Shown here one piece after another: positions 52,554 to 63,425 of a stretch of DNA of 64,000 nucleotides. Both the position numbers and the translations under genes were made by a program. The stretch comes from an uncultured bacterium. GTDB lineage: Bacteria; Chloroflexota; UBA5177; JANWHV01. The stretch is taken from NCBI GenBank assembly GCA_963827235.1, contig CAWHAE010000009.1, positions 928,001 to 992,000 on the forward strand. The letters run 5' to 3'. Numbering within the stretch: the stretch's first letter is position 1; the number at the start of each line of letters is the position of its first letter. The notes under the pieces were generated by a model, which saw only the letters and a list, made by a program, of their open reading frames with translations, did no database searches and was not told the origin of the DNA.

Positions 52554-55500
52554 TCAGCGCACGGTGAAATAGGAGCCGCTGCTGCGGCCGAATACCTCCG
52601 GGAAGTAGTCCTGCTGCGCATGTGCAGGCAAGGTGTGGTAGATGCCCTGCGTGGTGCAGTGGATCAGGTAGGTGTACTGGTAGCTGCCGGCCGGCAGATA
52701 GGAGAGAAACAGCACGGTGCGGTCGTCGCGCAGGTCGGTGTGCGTGACGTACCAGGAGAGATCGGTCGTGCCGGCCGGTATCTTCGACGTGTTCTGAATC
52801 TGCGCGAGCTGGCTGGTGGTCTGCAGACTGCTATCCACCGCTTCGGCGCCGGCCGGCAGCGGATCCTCGAGCGTCAGGTAGAAGAGATCCTGGGACGTGG
52901 TCAGGCGAATTTGCACGCGGATGGTGCTCCCGTTCGAGGCGCTTCTGCCGTCCGCGGTGAGGTAGGCGCGGCTCATGGAGAGGCCGGCACCGGCAGCCTC
53001 TATCTGGTCGACCGGGCGGAAGTACCGGAGCCGGATGACGTAGCTCAGGTTGCCGTTGTTGGGCCGCACGTCGCGGGAGAAGGCGATGTTCTGCGTGCTG
53101 CCGGCCGGCATCTCCCTGCCGAGTGACCGCGTGAGCGTGCGGTTCTGGGCCAGATTGGCGGCTCCGACCGAGCCGGATCCCCAGAGCGCGCCGTTGAGCC
53201 GGACCGTGTAGTGGTAGTCGGCGTTGAGCTCGCCGCTGGCGAACACGTAGTCCACGAGACCGCGCACACTGACCGCGGTGGCGTAGCTGCTTTGCCAGGC
53301 ATCGGCCGTGCGTGCGGCCATCAGCCATCGCACGGCGCTCGGAATGAGCGGGCTGTCGGGCTGCGTCTTGACGAGCGCATCGAGGACGGTGGCCGAGGTG
53401 GCAATATCGCTATCGAGATCCGCCCAGTCGTAGCTCGGTTCTTCCCAGTGCACGCTGGCGCCGCTGGTCTTGGCCGCGCTGGTGAGATCCGAGAGCAATC
53501 CGAGGACACGTGCATGGGCGGCGGCGTTGTTGAGTGGCGCGAACACCTGGATAAGCTGCGCTTTTGCATAGGTGGCAAGAAGGTCACGCACGTCGTAGAG
53601 CTGCGCGGCGAGATCGGCGACGTCGGCGGGACGGCCGGCGAGGGTCACGGAGTAGACGAGCGAGGCCTGCAGATTGGCATCGTAGGCCGCGTTGTTGGTG
53701 GCGGCCGGACTCTGCATGTTGGCGATCAGATAGCTGACGGCGTTGTCGAGCACCGACTGCGACACCTTGTAACCGAGGTCGCGGGCGCCGGCCAGGGCTT
53801 CCACCACATACACCGTGATGTAGGGGCTGCTATAGGGGTCGTCGATCCACCAGCCGAACCCGCCATCGCCGTGCTGATCGTCATAGAGACTGCTAAGGCG
53901 GCCGGCAACGTCGGCACCGAGGTGTCCGCGTTCGGCCTTCGTGAGCACGGACGCCCGCGCGGGCAGGCGGCCAAGCTCGGTCTCACCCAGGATCTGGGAT
54001 GCGAGGTCCACGCTGGACTCGTAGGGATAGCGAGCGAGGAAGTCGGCTCCTACGCGCAGACCAGAGGCGAGAGTGGGCTCGAGGATCACGGTCAGGCTGC
54101 CCTCGTTCGGCTCGGCATTGGCGGGGATGCGGACCTGCTCCCGCGTATCCGCGCCGGCCTGGCCCGAGGTAGCCACGGTCTCCGGCGTGCTGTTCTCACG
54201 CACCGGAAGGGCGAGCTGCACGGCGTCGTTGGTGGCCGGATGGCTCGTGTCGACGGCCTCGACCAGCACCGTGGCTGTGCCGAGCGCGGTAATGGTGATC
54301 GGCCAGGTGACGTCCAGCTCGCCGCCGGGCTCGAGCTTGACGAGCTTGTCGCCGATCACGGTCGGGGTGAGCTTGGGCGAGCCGTCGGCCAGCAGCAGGC
54401 GGAGGTGCGCCTCGACGTGCCTGTTCGAGGCGTTGTTGACGGTGGCGCCGATGCGCGCCTTATCGCCCAAGTCGAAGAAGCGAGGGGCAATCGGACGCAG
54501 GAGAAGGTCCTTGGTGGCCATCACGCTGGTAGAAGCGGCACCCACGAGCGAGGAGGCCGTGACGCCCTGGCCGAGGATCTTCCAGGTGGTCGTGTTGTCG
54601 GGCAATGGTACGTCGACGGTTGCACTGCCGTCCGCGCCGGTCACCACGGCGGCGTTCCAGTAGGCAGTGTCCTGGAAGTTCTGGCGAATACTCACTGCCG
54701 GGACGAGGGAGAGCACGACGGGAGACTTGGCCGCGAACACGTTTCCCGGCGCAGAAGCGCTCTGGTTGGCGGAGCGAGCGGCGGAGGGAGTGCTGAGCGC
54801 TTCGCCCCCGGCGCCGTCCGTGGCGTAGGCGTGCCGGTTTGCCAGCACCGTGTGCTTACTGAGCAGCAGCACCGGGCTGAGGTTCAGGGTGTCGGAGGTG
54901 GTTACTCCCAGCTCGCGGTCGCCATAGAACGTGTCCAGGAGGCCACTACCCGTGCCGCTGTTTCCGGTAAGAGCCAGGTTGGCTTCGTCGACCAGACTGA
55001 GGCCGATCTGAGACCGTACCGGCTCACCGGCGTGGTCCACGACCCGGATCTTGATCGGAAGCGTCTGCCCGGGAGCGACCCGCGACTTCGCCGGTGTCAC
55101 GGAAATGCGCAGCGCGCGCTCGGCGGAGTCTACGTGGATGCGAGCATAGCCGAGACGCCAGTCGGGTCGCCCGGTGGCGGCAGATCCTCGTTCGATCACC
55201 ACGCTCACGTAGGTGTCCGGGAGATAGGAGGACTCGACCGGAATGTCCAGCACTGTGGCGGTGCCCGCGAGGCGGCGCACGCTGGAGTTCAGAATGCGCC
55301 CGCGCTCAATCGTAATCAGGGCGGTCGCGTTCGAGTAGGGGGTGGTGACCATGATATGGGCGACGTCACCGCTTTGGTAGGTCCGCTTGTCGGTGATCAG
55401 GCGGATATGTCCCTGCTGCTGCGAGCTCCAGTCGATGGGTGTCTCGCCTCCGGCGTAGATCTCGATAGAGCTTTGCGACGTGTTGCCGTACTTGTCGCGG

Positions 55501-58322
55501 GCGTCTGCCACGATGTGATACTGGCCACCCATTGGCGCGGCGAAGGGAAAAGAGGCCATGCCGTGAGCATCCGTTTTGACCGTGAGAGTCTTCAAGAGAG
55601 TATCCGCCGGCACGTACTGCTGGCTCACCGACCCATCCTCCTGTTTGACGACCACGTTGTGGTAGTCGCGGCGGAAGACGCGAACGCGCACGGGCAAGCG
55701 GTCGACCGGCGTAGTACCGTCGTCGGCGAGGCTGACGACGTGGATACGCTGTGCGGCACCGGGAGCGACAATCTGGTGATCGGCCTGCAGGCCGAGCTGC
55801 ACGGCGCTGCTGAACACGGCGACGCTGGTGCGCCCGGCGACCGGTTGGTTGTCGATGTCCGTGACGTCGGCTTCCACGGAGTAGGATTGGGCCAGCAGAC
55901 CTTTGGGCAGCTTGGCCGGAATGCGCAGAAGGACGGTGCCGTTGGTGCCGGTGGTGGCGTTGCCCTGGTAGAGCGTGTAGGAGGCGCCGCAAGTGGCGCA
56001 GATGGAGACGCCGAAGCCCAGGTCGTCGGCTGCCGGATCGTAGGCGCCGAACGAGTAGTCAGAGACGAGATCGGTGAAGAACGCGTACGTGTAGCCGAGG
56101 ACCGACCAGTGTACCTTGGCGTGCGCGACGGGTCCGCCGAAGTAGTAGCTGACGCCGACGGTAGCGAGGATGGTCTGGCCAAGACTATAGGTGGAGGCCG
56201 GCGTACCGATCGAGACGCTGTAGTTGGGCTCCTTGTATTCGGCTACCTGGAACGAGGCACTGCTCGACTGCGTGCCGATGGCGGCACTGAGACTGTAGTT
56301 GCCGAGCGAGGCGCCGGCGGCCAGGCAGAGGTCGGCGTGAAAGGCGCCGAACGAGTCCAGGAGAACCGTCTTCCTTGCTACCGTCTTTCCGGTGCCATCC
56401 GTGAGCACGAGCCGGACGGGGCCGGTGACAAGGCTATAGCTTGCGTCGTCGTCGGCACGGGCCACACCCCGCACGTGTAACATCTGCCCCGGCCGGTAGA
56501 TGGACCGATCCGTGGCGATGTTCATGCGGATGGCCGGCTGAGAGGAGGCATAGCTGATGCCGAAGTCGTAGGGGCTGATGCCGCTGCTCCACGACGAGCC
56601 GGCGACCACGGCATCGCCGGATCGCGCGGCGGCGACCACGATCTGGCCGTACTGCAGTAAGCTCTGCGCGTAACCGGAGAACTGGAGCGTGGCCAGACCC
56701 CGGGCATTGGTGGTGGCGCGGCCGAGCACGAGGTCGACCGACTGGCTGTCAGGCGCCGAGGTGCGCCAGAGCCGCGGCAGAAACTCGCGCGGCAGCGTCG
56801 ACTGAGAGAGGTTCGTGGCCAGAACCTGCACCGGCAGATTGGCGATCGGAGCGCCGGTTTTCAGATCGGTCGCCCATACCAGTACCTGGTCGTGCGAGAC
56901 CTTGATCGTGAGGCCGGTGCGCGTGACGAGCAGGAGCTCGACGTCGCGCGCGTCGGCGGACGCGTTGGAGGTGGCGACCACGAGATAGTATCCCGGGGCC
57001 AAGGCCTTGTGGCCGGGCAGATCGGCGACCACCTGCAAGGGGATAGTCTTGTTGAGCGGCGCGTCCGGTCGCACGACGATGTCACCGACCTCCTGGCCGC
57101 CGGCCACGGTGCCGGTCGTGAGGTCGTAGACGTCGCTCATATCGTCGACGAACGTCTGCTGATCCAGCGTGTACAGGGTGAAGTCGACCGTGCCGGGGTT
57201 GACGGCCTGCAAGCTGAGGGTAATGGGCCGGGTGGCTTCGTACACGGCCACGCTGCCGGAGACGAAGTAGAGCTGCGGCGGGAGAGACGCGCTCACGAAA
57301 TGCAGCGTGAACGGCCTACCCAGCGTATCGCCCGCACGGGCACGCAGGCCGGCCCGGATGCCGATCGTGTAGGCGGTGGAGGGTGCGAACTGCCCGTAGA
57401 TGTGCAGGGAGAGGTCGTCGTCTCCCTCGGTGACGTAGCGGTTGGGCACGTCGGGCGAGAGGCGCAGGTTGGTAAGGGCAGACTTCTCGTCGATCGGGGC
57501 ATTGAACTCGACGATCACGCCGTCGCCTGTATCGGCGTCGCTAGAATTGGCGGCCGGGGTCGTGCCGACCACGTGCAGATACGGCGCCACGGCGAAGCTC
57601 CAGGTAAGGGAGGTGGGCATGGGAAGCGGCCCCTCGGCGGAGCGCGCACCGGCGTCGAGCCGGGCCGTGTACATGGCACTGCGCGTCAGCGCGTGCAGGG
57701 GCCTGAAGCGCAACGCGCCCGCGGACCACGAGAAGACGCCGGGCACGGACTTGCCCGTCGCGTCTCGGAGGTGAAAGGCGCTCTGAACGCTCGCGTGATC
57801 CATCTGCTGGTTGAAGATGAGGGAGACGGCCGGATCCGGGAGCGCGTACTGGTAACCATCGGCAGGATACACGTCGACCAGACGCGGCAGCACGGTAGTG
57901 AACGACCACGCATAGGTTGACTGGAGGCGCGTGCCATCGATCGCCTTGAGGCCGGCGGCGATGCTCAGCCGATACGTGGTGGCGGCATGAAGGTACTTGG
58001 CGTTCCACGCATAGATCGAGCTCGTCACCCACCTGCCGCTGCCCCGGAGCGCGGGAATGCTGTGTAGGGGAGCGAGCGCGGGAGACTCGCCAAGCGCGGT
58101 GAGCGCCGCCACAGGGCGGTCGAACGCCACCATGATGGTGGTCGCCGCGGCGACGCCGCCGGTCGAGGGCGCGGGCGAGACGGCTCGAACGGAGAGGTCG
58201 GGCGACGCTATCGCGCCGGCGTGCGAGGCGTGTCCGGGCGGGAAACCGCCGAGGAGCAGGATGGGAAGCAGCAAGAGCGCGATGAAGCGCTTGGCCGGCG
58301 ACTGTCGGTCCTGGGTCGGCAT
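52554..58322 (-). CDS. Bacterial alpha-2-macroglobulin family protein with N-terminal Ig-like domains
   Basis: Signal peptide; FNQQMD / FNAPID Ig-like repeats; TDRSIYRPGQ, FQVAEYK, RQNFQDTAYW, LPDNTTTW, DGGFGWW, EDPLPAG, YFPEVFGRS. Confidence 0.92.
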   Translation of the reverse strand: MPTQDRQSPAKRFIALLLLPILLLGGFPPGHASHAGAIASPDLSVRAVSPAPSTGGVAAATTIMVAFDRPVAALTALGESPALAPLHSIPALRGSGRWVTSSIYAWNAKYLHAATTYRLSIAAGLKAIDGTRLQSTYAWSFTTVLPRLVDVYPADGYQYALPDPAVSLIFNQQMDHASVQSAFHLRDATGKSVPGVFSWSAGALRFRPLHALTRSAMYTARLDAGARSAEGPLPMPTSLTWSFAVAPYLHVVGTTPAANSSDADTGDGVIVEFNAPIDEKSALTNLRLSPDVPNRYVTEGDDDLSLHIYGQFAPSTAYTIGIRAGLRARAGDTLGRPFTLHFVSASLPPQLYFVSGSVAVYEATRPITLSLQAVNPGTVDFTLYTLDQQTFVDDMSDVYDLTTGTVAGGQEVGDIVVRPDAPLNKTIPLQVVADLPGHKALAPGYYLVVATSNASADARDVELLLVTRTGLTIKVSHDQVLVWATDLKTGAPIANLPVQVLATNLSQSTLPREFLPRLWRTSAPDSQSVDLVLGRATTNARGLATLQFSGYAQSLLQYGQIVVAAARSGDAVVAGSSWSSGISPYDFGISYASSQPAIRMNIATDRSIYRPGQMLHVRGVARADDDASYSLVTGPVRLVLTDGTGKTVARKTVLLDSFGAFHADLCLAAGASLGNYSLSAAIGTQSSSASFQVAEYKEPNYSVSIGTPASTYSLGQTILATVGVSYYFGGPVAHAKVHWSVLGYTYAFFTDLVSDYSFGAYDPAADDLGFGVSICATCGASYTLYQGNATTGTNGTVLLRIPAKLPKGLLAQSYSVEADVTDIDNQPVAGRTSVAVFSSAVQLGLQADHQIVAPGAAQRIHVVSLADDGTTPVDRLPVRVRVFRRDYHNVVVKQEDGSVSQQYVPADTLLKTLTVKTDAHGMASFPFAAPMGGQYHIVADARDKYGNTSQSSIEIYAGGETPIDWSSQQQGHIRLITDKRTYQSGDVAHIMVTTPYSNATALITIERGRILNSSVRRLAGTATVLDIPVESSYLPDTYVSVVIERGSAATGRPDWRLGYARIHVDSAERALRISVTPAKSRVAPGQTLPIKIRVVDHAGEPVRSQIGLSLVDEANLALTGNSGTGSGLLDTFYGDRELGVTTSDTLNLSPVLLLSKHTVLANRHAYATDGAGGEALSTPSAARSANQSASAPGNVFAAKSPVVLSLVPAVSIRQNFQDTAYWNAAVVTGADGSATVDVPLPDNTTTWKILGQGVTASSLVGAASTSVMATKDLLLRPIAPRFFDLGDKARIGATVNNASNRHVEAHLRLLLADGSPKLTPTVIGDKLVKLEPGGELDVTWPITITALGTATVLVEAVDTSHPATNDAVQLALPVRENSTPETVATSGQAGADTREQVRIPANAEPNEGSLTVILEPTLASGLRVGADFLARYPYESSVDLASQILGETELGRLPARASVLTKAERGHLGADVAGRLSSLYDDQHGDGGFGWWIDDPYSSPYITVYVVEALAGARDLGYKVSQSVLDNAVSYLIANMQSPAATNNAAYDANLQASLVYSVTLAGRPADVADLAAQLYDVRDLLATYAKAQLIQVFAPLNNAAAHARVLGLLSDLTSAAKTSGASVHWEEPSYDWADLDSDIATSATVLDALVKTQPDSPLIPSAVRWLMAARTADAWQSSYATAVSVRGLVDYVFASGELNADYHYTVRLNGALWGSGSVGAANLAQNRTLTRSLGREMPAGSTQNIAFSRDVRPNNGNLSYVIRLRYFRPVDQIEAAGAGLSMSRAYLTADGRSASNGSTIRVQIRLTTSQDLFYLTLEDPLPAGAEAVDSSLQTTSQLAQIQNTSKIPAGTTDLSWYVTHTDLRDDRTVLFLSYLPAGSYQYTYLIHCTTQGIYHTLPAHAQQDYFPEVFGRSSGSYFTVR

Positions 58323-58476
58323 TGACGGATCCTCCACTGCATCAGGGCGGCTGCCCGGCGGGCATCCGCGGCCGGGTGCCTTACGCACATCTATGCGAAG
58401 AACGCGGCGATGGCGGCGAACGTAACGAGGTCTCGTCGTCTCAGCCCATCACGTTCCACCGGCCAGGGGTGTCAAG

Positions 58477-58898
58477 TCAGCAACCGTCGTCGGCAAGGTG
58501 GTGCAGCACCGCGAACCGGGTTGCCGCGGCGCACGACGAGACGCCGAGCTTGTTGTAGATGGCGTGCAGATGCTGCTCTACGGTGCGGGGACTGAGCACC
58601 AACCTTTCGGCCACCCCAGCGCTGGAAAGGCCCTCGGCCACGAGCGGCAACACTTCTACCTCGCGCATGCTCAGACCGGCTGGATAGGCCGAGGAGGTTG
58701 CATGCTGTCCGAGCCTGGCCCTGAGCCCGGCAAGCTGCGTCAGGGCAGATTGCGCACCAAGGGGCTCGAGGATGGCGGCCGACTGCTTCAGGTATGCAGC
58801 GATATCGTCCGTCTCTCGCCCGGCTATGCAGAGCTCAGCCAGCGCCAACAAGGTCAGCGCCTCCTCGTACGGGGTTGCGCAGGAGCGTGCCAGGCTAA
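58477..58898 (-). pseudogene. 3' part (LuxR HTH) of an IS630-interrupted regulator
   Basis: YPAGLSMREVEVL..GLS...VAERLVLSPRTVEQHL..IYNKLGV; joins the 63454+ part in frame (SHLEASLSLARSCATPYEEA) once the IS is removed. Confidence 0.85.
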
Positions 58899-58981
58899 GT
58901 GGTCGCTTTCACAATGAGTTGTAGGGTGTGTGGTATGGTGAGAGGCATCACGCTATCCGCGACCAACGAGACGGACCGAGC

Positions 58982-59950
58982 ATGCCTGGACCGCTTCCCC
59001 ACTACCAGCCCGTCTTCACCGACGAGCAGATTGCTGCGTGCTTGCGCCTTGTGCGCCAGCGCACGGCACCGCAAGCACAGGTGTACCGCGCCAAGTTGGC
59101 GCTGCTGCTGCACGCCCAGCCGGCCCTGGATAACCCGAGCGCCGGACGGCTGGTGGGCAAGCACGAGAACTGGGTGCGCTACTGGCGGCGCACCTGGGCC
59201 ATCGAGGGCTTTCGCCTGGCGGACAAGCCAGGCAGCGGGCGCAAGCCCCGGTTTTCCCCCTCTGGCCAGAGCCACGGTGACGGCGCTGGCCTGCGAGCTG
59301 CCGGCCCAGCGCGGTGAACCGCTCAGCCGCTACAGTATGGCCGAGATCGCCCGTCTGATTCGGGCGCACCCGGATGCGCCGCCGATGAGCCAGAGTACGA
59401 TCTGGCGCATTCTGGACCGCGATGCCCTCAAGCCCTGGCGCTACCGCAGTTGGATCTTCCCGCGCGACCCGCAGTTTGCGGCGAAGGCCGGGCGCGTCCT
59501 GGACCTGTACGCCGGCTTCTGGGAGGGCCAGCCGCTGGAGCCTGCAGACTGCATCCTCAGCGCAGACGAAAAGACGAGCATTCAGGCGCGTATCCGGCGT
59601 CATGCCAGTCTGCCGCCGTCGCCGCAGCAGGGCACGCAACCGGGCCGGCCCAGCTACGTCGAGCAGGAGTACCGGCGCGGTGGTGCTCTGGCCTACCTGG
59701 CGGCCTGGGACGTGCGGCGCGGGCACATCAGCGGGCGCTGCGAGGCCACCACCGGCAAAGCCCCCTTCGGCCGGCTGGTCGACCAGCTCATGCAGCAGGA
59801 ACCCTACCGCTCGGCGCCTCGCGTCTTCTGGGTCGTGGACAACGGCTCCAGCCATCGCGGTGCCCGGGCGCAGCGGGAACTGGCGGCCCGCTATCCCAAC
59901 CTGATCCTGGTCCATCTGCCTACCCACGCATCCTGGCTCAACCAAATCGA
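58982..59950 (+). pseudogene. IS630 transposase, N-terminal part (HTH orf, -1 shift at TTTTCCCCC, DDE domain), interrupted
   Basis: DKPGSGRKPRFSP; ALACELP; SADEKTSIQA; EYRRGG; VVDNGSSH; HLPTHASWLNQIE. Confidence 0.9.
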
Positions 59951-60525
59951 ACCAAGACCAAGCCATTGCAGGGACGCTGCCTAGTGGTGATAAGCTACTG
60001 GGCTATACCATAGTCCAATATCCCGGTCATCCCCTCGCTGGCCGCAGCGTCCCCGTGGTACGGCGCTACGGTCGCCGCGAGCGAGGGCAGTGGGTGATCG
60101 AACTGCCGGATGGCAGCCGGCAATACCTTCCCGCCTCCTGGTGTTCGCCGCTCGTTGCGGCAGAAGGAGCGCTTCCTGTGCCCGCATCGTCCCCGGATGA
60201 ATCGTCCGATGGTGGTGCCCGTCCGCTGCTGAGCGTGACCGCGCTGCGTGACCTGGCTGCCCTGGTGCGTCGCCTGCAGGAGGCGGCAGCCCCGCGTGGA
60301 GAGGAGCAGGGCGATGCAGGGGACGCAGGAGTGGCCGTGCCCGGAAGCGAACGAGCGGACGGGCGTGGTGAGCAGCGGGAGCGGGGTGGTGGCGTTGCCG
60401 AACTGGGAGAGCTTCCAGGAGGCGGACCGGCGCCAGCTGGTGCAGACCATCCTGCACGTGGCGCGTCGGCAGGTGGAGCAAGCGGGCCCGGCAGACCGAC
60501 TCCGCGGAAAGTGAGGCAGCCGTGA
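59951..60525 (+). CDS. DUF5372-like accessory protein; 5' end lies at the other end of the element
   Basis: Frame is open from the junction: ..TIVQYPGHPLAGRSVPVVRR..LPDGSRQYLPASW; no ATG/GTG/TTG before 60055, which is downstream of the HPL motif. Confidence 0.7.
60314..60514 (+). CDS. 66-aa hypothetical protein overlapping the preceding ORF in another frame
   Basis: GAGGAG RBS, ATG 60314, helical LPNWESFQEADRRQLVQTILHVARRQV; stops 7 bp before the recombinase start. Confidence 0.5.
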   Translation: MQGTQEWPCPEANERTGVVSSGSGVVALPNWESFQEADRRQLVQTILHVARRQVEQAGPADRLRGK

Positions 60526-62783
60526 GCGCGAACACAGCGGCAGGCGCGGTGTGGGACCAGGTGGCGGCAGGTACGGCCGATCCCAAAGTCCGGGCCCAGC
60601 ACCTGGGCCGCCAGGCGCTGATCTACGTGCGCCAATCCAGTCCCAACCAGGTACAACGCCACCCCGAAAGCGCGCGCCGGCAATATGGGTTGGTCGAGCG
60701 AGCCGCCCAGTTGGGCTGGCCACGCGATCAGATTGTGGTCATCGATGAGGACCAGGGCAAGAGCGGCGCGGGCAGCGCCGCCAGCCAGGGTCGTGATGGC
60801 TTTGCCCGGCTGGCCGCTGCCGTCAGCCTGGGTGAGGTCGGCTTAGTGCTGGCGCTGGAGGTGGCCCGGCTGGCGCGCAATTCGGCGGAGTGGTATCGCT
60901 TGCTCGAACTCGCCGGCTACAGCGGCACCCTGATCGCCGACGAGGCGACCGTCTACGATCCTCGGCTCTTCAATGACCGCCTGCTCTTGGGCCTGCGGGG
61001 AACGATCAGCGAGGTGGAACTGCATTGCATCCAGGAGCGCCTCCACGGCGCCCGCATGAGCAAGGCACAGCGCGGAGACTTACCGATCCGCCTGCCTGCT
61101 GGCTACCTGGCGGACCACGCCGGCCGCGTCGAACTCGATCCCGACCAGGAAGTGCAAGGGGCGATACGGACGATCTTCGCCCAATTTGAGGGGCTGGGCA
61201 CCGTCACCGCCGTGCTGCACTTCTTCACCGCGCACGGGCTGCTGGTGCCCCGGCGCCGCTGGCACGCCGAGAGCGGGTCGCAGATCGTGTGGATGCGGCC
61301 CAGCTACCAGGCATTGCACACGGTGCTCACCAATCCCGTCTATGCCGGGGCCTACGTCTACGGGCAGCGCGGACCGGCCGCGGATCTGGGGGCGCCAAAG
61401 CGGCGCCACCGGTATGCCGCGGAGGAAGCGGCGGTGCTGCTGCGCGACCACCACCCCGCGTATATTAGCTGGGAACGCTTTCTCGCCACGCGGGCAACCC
61501 TGCAGGACAATGCCAGCCAGTTCCCCGCGAGCAGAGGCGCACCGCGGCGCGGGCATGGTCTCTTGCAAGGCCTCGTGGTCTGCGGCCGGTGTGGCTGCCG
61601 CATGCGGCTGCAGTACGGCGACACCAGCACTGCGTACGTCTGCATCACGCGGCATCAACGCTACGGGGAGCCGCTCTGCCAGAGCCTGACCATGGACCAC
61701 GTCGACCGCGCCGTCAGCGAGGCGTTCCTAGCGGTCATCGCGCCGGCACAGGTCGCGGCGGCCCTGGCGCTGGCGGAAGACGTGGAGCGCGACCGGGCTG
61801 CTGCCCAGCGCCAATGGGAGTTGCGGCTGGAGCGGGCTCGCTACGAGGCCGAACGGGCCTTCCGGCAGTACGACCTCTGCGAGCCGGAGAACCGGCTGGT
61901 GGCGCGGGAGCTGGAAGGGCGCTGGAATGGCACGCTGCGCGAGGTGAGTGCGCTCGAGGCACAGTACCGGCAGGAGCAGGACCGCAGCCTGGCGCCGCTC
62001 ACCCCCGCAGAACAGACCGCGATCTGGCAGCTCGTGGGCGACATGCGTGCCCTCTGGGCGGCAACGCAGACGACCATGGAGGATCGCAAGCGCCTGCTGC
62101 GCTGTCTCATCCGCGAGGTGGTGCTTCTGCGCGACGACCGGCCCAGAGCGACGGGTGGCCTGACGACCATCCGCATTGGCTGGTGCAGCGGCGCCTGGAG
62201 CACCCTGCAGGTGCACCGGCCCGGCAGTGGCGATGCCGCCAACACGCCGGAGGCCGTCCTGAGCCGGATTCGGGGGCTGGCGCAGGACCATGCCGACGAT
62301 CAAGTCGCCCGGATCCTGAATGCGGAAGGTCTGCAAACGCGGCAAGGTCTGCCCTGGACCTACCTGCGGGTGCAGCAGGTCCGCCTGCGCCACCGCATCC
62401 CGACCGCCTGTCCGATCGTACCGCGCGACGGCGGCCCTCGCGGCGATGGTCTGGTGCCGGCGGGTACCGTCGCCGCCCAACTGGGCGTGGCGCGATCGGT
62501 GGTGGCGGAGTGGTGCCGGTGCGGCTTTCTGCGCGCCGAGCAGAAGGCGAGACTGGATCCCCGCTGGATCCAGCTCACCGCGGAGGACCGGGCGCGTCTG
62601 GACGGGACGCTGGCCGCGCAGGGCTACGGCCAGTGGCGGATCCGTGACGCCCAGCAGGTGCTCGGGCTGAACGCCGAGGCGCTGTACGCGCAGGTGCGAG
62701 CAGGCCAGCTGGTGGCCTATCGCGCGCACGTCGGGGCGCACTGGGAGTGGCGGGTCGGTCCGGCCACGCCGCCTGAACCGTAA
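60522..62783 (+). CDS. Large serine recombinase
   Basis: YVRQS catalytic Ser, DEDQGKSG, ARLARN, recombinase domain NPVYAG, zinc ribbon CGRCG..C..C, coiled coil, C-terminal HTH-like repeats. Confidence 0.94.
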   Translation: MSANTAAGAVWDQVAAGTADPKVRAQHLGRQALIYVRQSSPNQVQRHPESARRQYGLVERAAQLGWPRDQIVVIDEDQGKSGAGSAASQGRDGFARLAAAVSLGEVGLVLALEVARLARNSAEWYRLLELAGYSGTLIADEATVYDPRLFNDRLLLGLRGTISEVELHCIQERLHGARMSKAQRGDLPIRLPAGYLADHAGRVELDPDQEVQGAIRTIFAQFEGLGTVTAVLHFFTAHGLLVPRRRWHAESGSQIVWMRPSYQALHTVLTNPVYAGAYVYGQRGPAADLGAPKRRHRYAAEEAAVLLRDHHPAYISWERFLATRATLQDNASQFPASRGAPRRGHGLLQGLVVCGRCGCRMRLQYGDTSTAYVCITRHQRYGEPLCQSLTMDHVDRAVSEAFLAVIAPAQVAAALALAEDVERDRAAAQRQWELRLERARYEAERAFRQYDLCEPENRLVARELEGRWNGTLREVSALEAQYRQEQDRSLAPLTPAEQTAIWQLVGDMRALWAATQTTMEDRKRLLRCLIREVVLLRDDRPRATGGLTTIRIGWCSGAWSTLQVHRPGSGDAANTPEAVLSRIRGLAQDHADDQVARILNAEGLQTRQGLPWTYLRVQQVRLRHRIPTACPIVPRDGGPRGDGLVPAGTVAAQLGVARSVVAEWCRCGFLRAEQKARLDPRWIQLTAEDRARLDGTLAAQGYGQWRIRDAQQVLGLNAEALYAQVRAGQLVAYRAHVGAHWEWRVGPATPPEP

Positions 62784-62806
62784 CGTGACGCATCAGGGAG
62801 ACCGCC

Positions 62807-63130
62807 ATGCCCCAGCCACGCCGCTATCAGGACAACGCCGCCAAGCAACGCGCCTACCGCACGCGCCAGGAACAGGCCCGGCGCGAGGAGCAACAGGCCA
62901 AGGGACTGCCGCCCGCCCCGCCGTTGCCGACCCTGCCCAGCCGCGAACGCTGGCAGGCGCTCCTCACCCAGGCGCGGCTGGCCCTAGAAACCGCGCGCGA
63001 CGAAATGCACGCATATTACGACGACCGGTCCGACGCCTGGCAGCAGGGCGAGCGTGCGGCGACACTCGCCGAGGAGATCGAGCAGCTGGACGTGATCCTG
63101 GAGGAACTTGAGGCAGTGCTATTGCCTTAA
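62807..63130 (+). CDS. 107-aa hypothetical protein of the recombinase element
   Basis: GGGAG RBS; basic N-terminus RRYQDNAAKQRAYRTRQ, acidic helical C-terminus. Confidence 0.75.
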   Translation: MPQPRRYQDNAAKQRAYRTRQEQARREEQQAKGLPPAPPLPTLPSRERWQALLTQARLALETARDEMHAYYDDRSDAWQQGERAATLAEEIEQLDVILEELEAVLLP

Positions 63131-63211
63131 ACGCCCAACGCAGCGGCTGACGTGCCCGCTGATAGGCGGGCACGCCTCATCAAAGGAGATGCATTCGAAT
63201 GGGCTCACTGA

Positions 63212-63425
63212 GATCTACTTCTCTATCGTCCAACGCAAGGTGCTCAGCCCCAATGACTTCGCCGACCTGGCGGCGGTGGAGCAGCGCTTGCTCGCCTTCG
63301 AGGGCCTCTACAATCACACGGCGCAGCCCTTCGCCTGGAAGTTCACCCGGCCGGACCTCGAGCGGCGGCTGGCGCAACTGCGGCCAGTCCAGCAGCATGA
63401 ACCTGTCCTGGATCAGGCCGCCTAA
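63212..63425 (+). pseudogene. IS630 transposase, C-terminal part
   Basis: IYFSIVQRKVLSPNDF..FEGLYNHTAQPFAWKFTR. Confidence 0.88.

Follow-up and report, generated by a model that had tools for sequence, protein, structure and literature searches.

A serine recombinase element in a Chloroflexota genome whose recombination site appears to part a gene from its translation start

Within a 64,000-nucleotide (nt) stretch of an uncultured Chloroflexota genome (contig CAWHAE010000009.1, positions 928,001 to 992,000; the window, in what follows) lies a small mobile element built around a large serine recombinase (LSR), here called REC. The first open reading frame (ORF) of this element, ORF1, is without a start codon of its own ahead of its conserved domain, and a start codon in the matching frame, preceded by a Shine-Dalgarno-like (SD-like) sequence, stands at the opposite end of the element. 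Based on the comparisons described below, we consider it reasonably probable that the ORF1 gene is split by the recombination site and that its full-length product is made only when the two element ends are joined.

The element and its mobility

The element is a unit of 3261 bp with GA at 59949-59950 and 63210-63211 as its ends. It interrupts a transposase gene of the IS630/DDE_3 type (IS, insertion sequence), whose 5' part (58899-59950, + strand; Pfam DDE_3 at E 4.9e-11, and HTH_32) is cut after ...HASWLNQI plus the GA of a Glu codon, and whose 3' part (63212-63425, + strand) resumes with IYFSIVQRKVL. A second copy of the element, at 100% identity, is found elsewhere in the same genome (G000:C12:1390112-1393376). 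The match spans exactly 59947-63211, the flanks are unlike those of the first copy, and GA is again present at both element ends. The corresponding empty site is represented by a metagenome contig (run X1) of a related transposase gene, in which 59948 is joined to 63210, 3261 bases are skipped and 2 letters fit either side. Because the host IS630 gene has no second copy in the same genome, the empty site is known from this metagenome contig only. The same GA thus appears at both ends of both copies and at the empty site, with no longer target duplication.

The distribution of the element is patchy. An ORF1 match was found in 0 of 4 genomes of the same genus and, in a phylum sample of 401 genomes, in 9 including the studied one, only that in genome G330 being strong. 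In total, the two identical copies, the empty site and this scattered occurrence suggest a mobile element of patchy distribution that was active recently and has the 2-bp crossover expected for a serine recombinase.

Reading from the left, the GA at 59949-59950, at which identity with the second copy ends and the empty-site joint falls, is followed by the left-end recombination arm (59951-59980), which would form the right half of the joined site and was delimited by consensus and symmetry; it lies over ORF1 codons 1-10. The body of ORF1 (59950-60528; 191 codons plus stop) is DUF5372-like. ORF2 (60314-60514; 66 amino acids from the ATG at 60314) overlaps the ORF1 tail in the +1 frame and has tblastn matches in most of the loci compared below, and REC (60522-62783; 753 amino acids) is recognized from Pfam matches, alignment and its nearest solved structure. 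ORF4 (62807-63130; 107 amino acids) follows. All four ORFs are co-oriented on the + strand, as an earlier, preliminary description of this DNA had noted.

A reading frame that appears to begin at the far end of the element

The ORF1 frame, recognizable by its TIVQYPGHPL segment, is open from 59905, just after a TGA at 59902-59904, to the stop at 60526-60528. In both copies the earliest ATG, GTG or TTG of this frame is the GTG at 60055, which lies inside the conserved domain and downstream of the invariant residues H42, P43 and L44 (aligned-frame numbering). The preliminary description had claimed that ORF1 has no start codon before TIVQYPGHPL, and this proved correct.

At the right end, an SD-like AAGGAG (63183-63188, + strand) precedes by 10 nt an ATG at 63199-63201. 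The stretch from this ATG to the right GA (63199-63211, + strand) comprises the start codon, three more codons and the first base of the joint codon, and it overlaps both the right arm and the right GA. The ATG stands 13 nt ahead of the end of the right GA and is in frame with ORF1, so joining the ends at GA gives a continuous frame in which GA sits between codons 4 and 5, and the four right-end codons plus the 191 codons of ORF1 specify 195 residues. The codon count agrees with the in-frame 195-residue protein and the 3261-bp unit first proposed, and the positions then given for AAGGAG and the ATG were likewise borne out. The arms are imperfectly symmetric around GA, with 11 of 19 inner positions matching (the value first given, obtained again on recomputation) and 13 of 25 over a wider span. 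The left-end consensus is kept across 50 distinct sequences.

Conservation of the arrangement among relatives

Relatives were gathered from several sources. The databases held 89 homologues of ORF1 at E <= 0.01, none with a useful name; a search of genome contigs gave one locus, in a Chloroflexota metagenome-assembled genome; and the metagenome part consists of the best 80 of 100 matches. In all, 97 loci were compared, and a tblastn map of them shows that almost all loci of sufficient length share the order ORF1, ORF2, REC.

Is the stretch ahead of the conserved domain translated? The left ends suggest that it is. In all 61 distinct 150-nt left ends, the distance from the first left-end codon to PGHPL is exactly 24 codons, free of stops and indels. 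No stop interrupts the ORF1 frame in any of the 57 distinct 72-nt left ends, and the other two frames contain stops in 22 and 35 of them, respectively. The entropy between sequences over the first 60 nt is 0.86, 0.71 and 1.19 at codon positions 1, 2 and 3, with the limit that the first ~8 ORF1 codons overlap the recombinase arm, and the third position of the ORF1 frame is the most variable up to ~60300. This between-sequence variation by codon position served as the frame test in place of a plot of G+C content at third codon positions (GC3), which was rejected for 59950-60300: there the sequence is rich in Leu, Arg, Ala and Glu codons, first positions are nearly all G or C, and a neighbouring frame scores high. 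On this basis, the stretch ahead of the ORF1 conserved domain appears to be translated.

The right ends tell a parallel story. The right end could be fixed in 36 of the 43 loci with a near-complete REC, by the end motif, by the divergence of copies with different flanks and by a profile-like scan. These 36 loci reduce to 27 distinct right ends, all with the same geometry. Four codons ahead of the first left-end codon stands an ATG in 16 right ends, a TTG in 8, a GTG in 2 and a TTC in 1 (locus L050), and never a CTG; in L050, an ATG is formed at the joint instead. Thus, when we compared homologues for an in-frame relation between a right-end ribosome-binding site plus start and the left-end ORF, a check that the preliminary description had proposed, the start was in frame in 27 of 27 distinct right ends, at the same position in 26. 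An SD-like core lies 4-12 nt upstream of the start in 23 of the 27, and in the L061-type right end GAGG directly abuts the TTG. In L075, TC replaces GA at both junctions and the in-frame TTG is kept. The stop codon of REC falls 1-4 nt before the right-end start in 12 of 26 right ends and 16-37 nt before it in 3; another ORF intervenes in the remaining 11.

Two further observations concern individual right ends. In L059 (3070-3160) and L078 (3150-3240), a ~22-nt motif (TTGCCTCACG...TGTAACC type) occurs twice downstream of REC, and the point at which these two loci diverge falls inside the repeated motif. In L085, the candidate right end is longer by 3 nt, and the left end is missing from the locus.

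The recombinase, its predicted partner and the other reading frames

REC matches Pfam Resolvase (1.1e-14), Recombinase (5.8e-16) and Zn_ribbon_recom (7e-10), and its residues R37-Q38-S39, which we take to be the catalytic-serine motif, are invariant in 24 aligned sequences. Its nearest solved relative is the SPbeta integrase YokA, for which a fusion of the integrase with its recombination directionality factor (RDF) has been solved too (9dxd). No Pfam match to DUF4368 was found in REC at E <= 0.01. Near the C terminus of REC (residues ~707-741; 62640-62745) there is an HTH_17-type, excisionase-like helix-turn-helix, which falls just under the Pfam cut-off and reaches E 5.8e-06 when the last 127 residues are searched alone.

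For ORF1, the likeness to DUF5372 is seen through its relatives. The studied protein has no match to DUF5372 (PF17342) at E <= 1; 12 of 31 aligned homologues do match (best 2.3e-07), and 29 of the 30 nearest Atlas clusters, with a top score of 0.95, are labelled DUF5372. An AlphaFold2 model built on a 49-row alignment (mean predicted local distance difference test [pLDDT] score of 71) shows an SH3-like barrel, whose first strand spans residues 18-22, and then a linker that leads to a helix at 96-113; both this strand and the nearly invariant L17-G18 start ahead of codon 21. A Foldseek search of the model against the PDB gave 0 matches at E <= 0.001, and its top rows, KOW/SH3-like barrels, describe the fold only. 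No sequence relative of ORF1 was found among solved structures.

A pointer to a function for ORF1 is a structure prediction of REC together with ORF1 residues 1-123, built with a 24-row alignment for REC and the 49-row alignment for ORF1. Three runs gave interface scores (ipSAE) of 0.65, 0.64 and 0.66, and the best of three controls gave 0.00. A mark of 0.65 is reached by 58 of 80 solved complexes and by 2 of 110 mismatched pairs, a calibration that is approximate here because the alignments were custom-made. At least 89% of the contacts are shared between runs, with a partner pLDDT of at least 64, and the models place REC 353-381, 405-418, 490-532 and 553-560 against ORF1 24-27, 47, 56-64 and 91-113. 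The contacts at REC 353-381 fall within the Pfam zinc-ribbon match (347-401), and on the ORF1 side the interface uses nearly invariant residues of the 91-113 helix and the barrel loops. This region of serine integrases carries the direction-setting coiled-coil and is acted on by RDFs. ORF1 is thus predicted to bind REC at the zinc ribbon and the helices that follow it. The preliminary description had suggested an accessory role for ORF1, possibly in directionality, targeting or replication; what the complex prediction backs is a partnership with the recombinase.

ORF2 has no Pfam match, is conserved in most relatives and has a GC3 of 0.93-1.0. At ~60385-60470, the variable third position switches to the ORF2 frame; because ORF2 is the constrained frame there, the last ~70 codons of ORF1 look unconstrained. 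ORF4 has no Pfam match either, and tblastn matches to it are confined to the closest relatives (L008, L010 and L082/83). A paralogue of ORF4 lies outside any element copy at locus L003 (G000:C17:213761-214026; 61% protein and 72% DNA identity), and shorter DNA matches to ORF4 occur on contigs C13 and C10 of the genome. Between ORF4 and the SD-like sequence, a 10-bp GC-rich hairpin (63151-63174, + strand; fold -32.3 kcal/mol, z -2.06 against shuffles) has no T-run and was not called a terminator, and a terminator scan of 59700-63400 returned 0.

Target choice and surroundings

How does the element choose where to insert? The element has more than one target: two different genes in the studied genome and 60 distinct left flanks among relatives. 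At the 60 distinct left junctions the crossover dinucleotide is GA in 57, TC in 2 and TA in 1. A strict motif, [L/M/F][N/D]xx, is encoded directly before the crossover in 45 of these 60 flanks, and several further flanks carry, by eye, variants of a ...SWLNxx / YSPxLNPx transposase motif. Because 45 of 60 flanks share one transposase motif, targeting appears to be motif-specific and not relaxed, despite the several target sites. The crossover GA supplies positions one and two of a Glu codon; at each of the 29 GA-type right junctions with flank sequence, the base that follows is A or G. The element invariably points the same way as the transposase gene. Counting from the Asp of VVDNGSSH in the studied transposase, the target Glu is 37 residues further on and, judging from the IS630/Tc1 DD-E signature, is probably the third catalytic residue. 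The ISY100 paper describes a C-terminal domain of the DDE type. The target of the second copy in the studied genome is an unrelated gene with an AAA_23 N terminus (L002 1187-1500; SMC/RecF-like ATPase), which is without the transposase motif and suggests a secondary site. One relative (L075 and L076), with TC at both ends, likewise has a non-transposase flank.

Upstream of the interrupted transposase gene, two genes on the - strand encode a 1943-amino-acid bacterial alpha-2-macroglobulin-like protein (52554-58388; Big_5, MG2, A2M_BRD, A2M and bMG10) and a small LuxR/GerE-type regulator (58477-58851).

A proposed mechanism

The observations outlined above are consistent with the following sequence of events. 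REC would cut the element out as a circle, with strand exchange at GA. The ORF1 gene would then be whole, its SD sequence, start and first four codons coming from the right end and its other 191 codons from the left end, and a transcript running through REC, or one from a right-end promoter, would cross the joint. In short relatives, in which REC terminates 1-4 nt ahead of the right-end start, a REC transcript would cross the joint and could carry ribosomes into ORF1. Ribosomes starting at the right-end codon would make full-length ORF1, and ORF1 would bind REC; end joining would in this way act as the switch-on of a REC-binding accessory protein, and the arrangement looks like an internal sensor of excision. 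Insertion would remove the start, split the ORF1 gene again and reset the system. Because the integrated copies are without a usable start for the conserved domain, full-length ORF1 would come only from joined ends, whether in a circle or in a head-to-tail tandem. Circle formation, translation from the right-end start, binding of ORF1 to REC and the direction of its effect are all steps that we infer.

What would ORF1 do to REC? Our guess is that ORF1 biases REC toward re-insertion, or licenses insertion, or blocks the reverse reaction, and we favour a role in re-insertion because the protein could appear only after excision. As a bolder speculation, tentative and somewhat doubtful as a whole, we posit that element topology itself sets the direction of recombination: an RDF-like protein would be made from joined ends only, would drive or license re-insertion and would then be turned off, a self-resetting arrangement independent of any host signal. 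Its bearers would be recombinase mini-elements directed to a single conserved Glu codon in IS630/DDE_3 transposases, and thus parasites of transposons whose excision restores the transposase gene.

Weighing the proposed split gene against its alternatives

Several results weigh against a split ORF1 gene that is completed only by joined ends. The end-to-end joint was found 0 times in contigs of runs X1, X2, X3 and X11 (the last of RNA) searched with 59700-63400 at 85% likeness, which yielded only skips of the empty-site type; contigs drop rare forms, and the best run held 0.24 of the sampled words, so that this result is silent on rare circles or their expression. A junction-like pattern occurs in 0 of the 97 fetched loci and a junction-type N terminus in 0 of the 89 database homologues of ORF1, and a scan of 59700-63400 for sigma-70-like promoters found 0. 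Residues 1-8 of ORF1 are modelled with low confidence as disordered and stand outside the predicted REC interface. At the right end, the sequence doubles as a recombinase-binding arm and encodes the REC C terminus in 12 of 26 cases, which provides other causes for its conservation and its lack of indels; 4 of the 27 right ends are without an SD-like core at 4-12 nt, and the seven loci in which the right end was not fixed (L026, L028, L059, L064, L065, L078 and L085) may hold exceptions. The counted sequences are related, so the counts are not numbers of independent events. Finally, and with most weight, internal starts are common in relatives. ATG is found at codon 21 in 32 of 57 left ends and GTG at codon 22 in 41 of 57, just 5 of the 61 distinct 150-nt left ends are without any ATG, GTG or TTG before the motif (the studied element, L050, L056, L057 and L064), and 15 of 58 distinct 120-nt flanks supply an in-frame start before any stop, 6 of these being ATG and 3 having an SD-like core. 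A short or flank-started form of ORF1 is therefore possible in many integrated relatives, although not in the two copies studied. The claim of a circle-only protein in the preliminary description consequently survives in part: the conserved right-end start and SD sequence in frame speak for it, and the circle-only state itself was seen in none of the contigs, the 97 loci or the 89 proteins.

Could ORF1 instead be made while the element is integrated, from an internal or unusual start? Candidates are the ATG at codon 21, the GTG at codon 22 or 23 and, in the studied copy, a CTG at codon 10; ribosomes might also re-initiate past the stop of the truncated transposase frame at 59982-59984. The right-end NTG and AAGGAG would then be kept as part of the REC arm or as codons of the REC C terminus, and the in-frame relation would be a trivial outcome of arms that do not tolerate indels. 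We regard this explanation as unlikely. Besides the frequency of internal ATG and GTG codons, it can call on the fact that gene callers begin ~35 of the database homologues at the codon-21 Met, that more distant DUF5372 genes (L089) have their own ATG ~8 codons before the domain, that the TGG of the NTG-GG motif recurs in the mirrored left arm, and that, in 12 of 26 right ends, REC coding sequence extends over the segment with the SD-like core. However, the studied element, present in two intact identical copies, and the four other left ends named above have no ATG, GTG or TTG before the domain at all. SD-like cores are rare before the internal starts, occurring in 3 of 32 cases at codon 21 and 4 of 41 at codon 22; the corresponding figures are 2 of 25 for NTG at codon 23 (found in 25 of 57 left ends) and, at 4-12 nt upstream, 0 of 14 for NTG at codon 10 (found in 14 of 57). 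An untranslated leader would need neither the open frame nor the third-position variation that are seen from codon 1 in 57 of 57 left ends, and the modelled strand at 18-22, together with L17-G18, lies upstream of codon 21. At the right end, the AAGGAG-type motif is kept even where it is non-coding (the studied element, L008 and L082), the first base of the NTG varies among A, T and G but is never C in 26 right ends, and where the NTG is lost, in L050, an ATG appears at the joint.

A second alternative sees ORF1 of the studied element as dispensable and in decay, its internal start already lost, with REC alone moving the element and the right-end start a relic. The studied left end has ATA GTC where many relatives carry ATG GTG, one relative (L086) has a premature ORF1 stop after the motif, and work of Lyras and coworkers from 2004 reportedly found that the recombinase alone suffices for Tn4451-type elements. 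Set against this, two identical copies that moved recently both have ORF1 uninterrupted through its 191 codons; internal starts have been lost in 5 distinct left ends, which belong to different subgroups; almost all of about 80 loci preserve the ORF1-ORF2-REC order; and the predicted REC interface is made of nearly invariant ORF1 residues. We therefore hold decay to be improbable.

That the right-end SD sequence and ATG serve outward translation, expressing the 3' part of the interrupted host gene, is extremely improbable: an 85-codon frame does run from 63199 into the flank, but its register is one base away from that of the transposase 3' part (63210 is the first base of the Glu codon, and the ATG-frame codons begin at 63208 and 63211), as at every insertion with GA in a Glu codon, and the flank of the second copy is unrelated.

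Relation to known systems

If a split ORF1 gene is indeed completed by end joining, the element would be a compact natural case of translation gated by recombination state. It would also give a first functional lead for DUF5372 and put forward a possible new type of partner protein for serine integrases, enzymes with wide use in genome engineering. Moreover, insertion at one conserved transposase codon offers a clean, testable case of one element targeting another. In a search of the literature at the level of main texts, neither this family nor a start codon parted from its ORF by a serine-recombinase site was found to have been described, and DUF5372 was not mentioned. The preliminary description had known of no account of such a switch in this family, and as regards the family that assessment is upheld; the novelty is nonetheless narrower than it implied, given that circle-specific expression is known for Tn4451, for ICEclc and ICEKp1 and for SSV-type integrases.

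One close likeness is to Tn4451/Tn4453 (TnpX) and Tn5397 (TndX), in which a large serine recombinase excises the element and inserts it at more than one site, and in which a 2-bp sequence is common to the ends, the joint and the empty site. The target of TnpX is reportedly GA, and Lyras and Rood are said to have reported in 2000 that the circular form of Tn4451 creates the promoter of tnpX. Circles of insertion sequences, too, have junction promoters. Here, in contrast to the Tn4451 type, the joint would complete an ORF by supplying an SD sequence, a start and four codons, and not a promoter; the gene concerned encodes an accessory protein and not the recombinase; there is no mobilisation or resistance cargo; and the hosts appear to be Chloroflexota. 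TnpX uses a 2-bp target (PMC3158075), and DUF4368 is reported in 63% of the multi-targeting TndX-like clade (bioRxiv 10.1101/2021.11.05.467528), whereas REC is without a DUF4368 match.

Promoters that act only across the joined site offer a second comparison. In ICEclc (Pcirc) and ICEKp1 (P3'end), the integrase is transcribed across attP when the element is excised (PMC13023037). In these cases, as in ours, a left-end gene depends on signals from the opposite end that are placed upstream of it only by circularisation; these promoters, however, drive an intact tyrosine-integrase gene, whereas here it is the translation start that is separated and the promoter scan was empty. Similar in geometry are the "suicidal" integrases of the SSV type in archaeal viruses and plasmids, in which the site lies inside an element gene that is whole only in the circle and is split by integration (PMC7253208). 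There, the enzyme is an archaeal tyrosine recombinase, and integration cuts the gene of the integrase itself in its middle, leaving two pseudogenes; here, the serine recombinase stays intact and an accessory gene loses its first four codons and its ribosome-binding site. In the mycobacteriophage BPs, integration is said to trim the 3' end of the repressor gene and to stabilise the repressor. In BPs and its relatives, which have integration-dependent immunity (PMC4557955), attP lies within a regulatory gene, so that the integration state changes the product, as we propose for ORF1; the difference is that in the present element it is the 5' end with the start that is removed, which should switch the gene off.

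Finally, ORF1 invites comparison with RDFs such as YotN, the partner of the SPbeta integrase YokA, in that a small protein is predicted to sit on the zinc ribbon and adjoining helices of a recombinase. ORF1 differs from them in having no PDB sequence relative or significant fold match, and a classical RDF is needed before excision, whereas ORF1 would appear only after it. Circle-specific expression is a recurring answer to the question that a mobile element faces, namely whether it is integrated or free. Expression of this kind is already known; what would be new here, we infer, is the level at which it acts, that of the translation start, together with the accessory nature of the gene and the class of recombinase involved.

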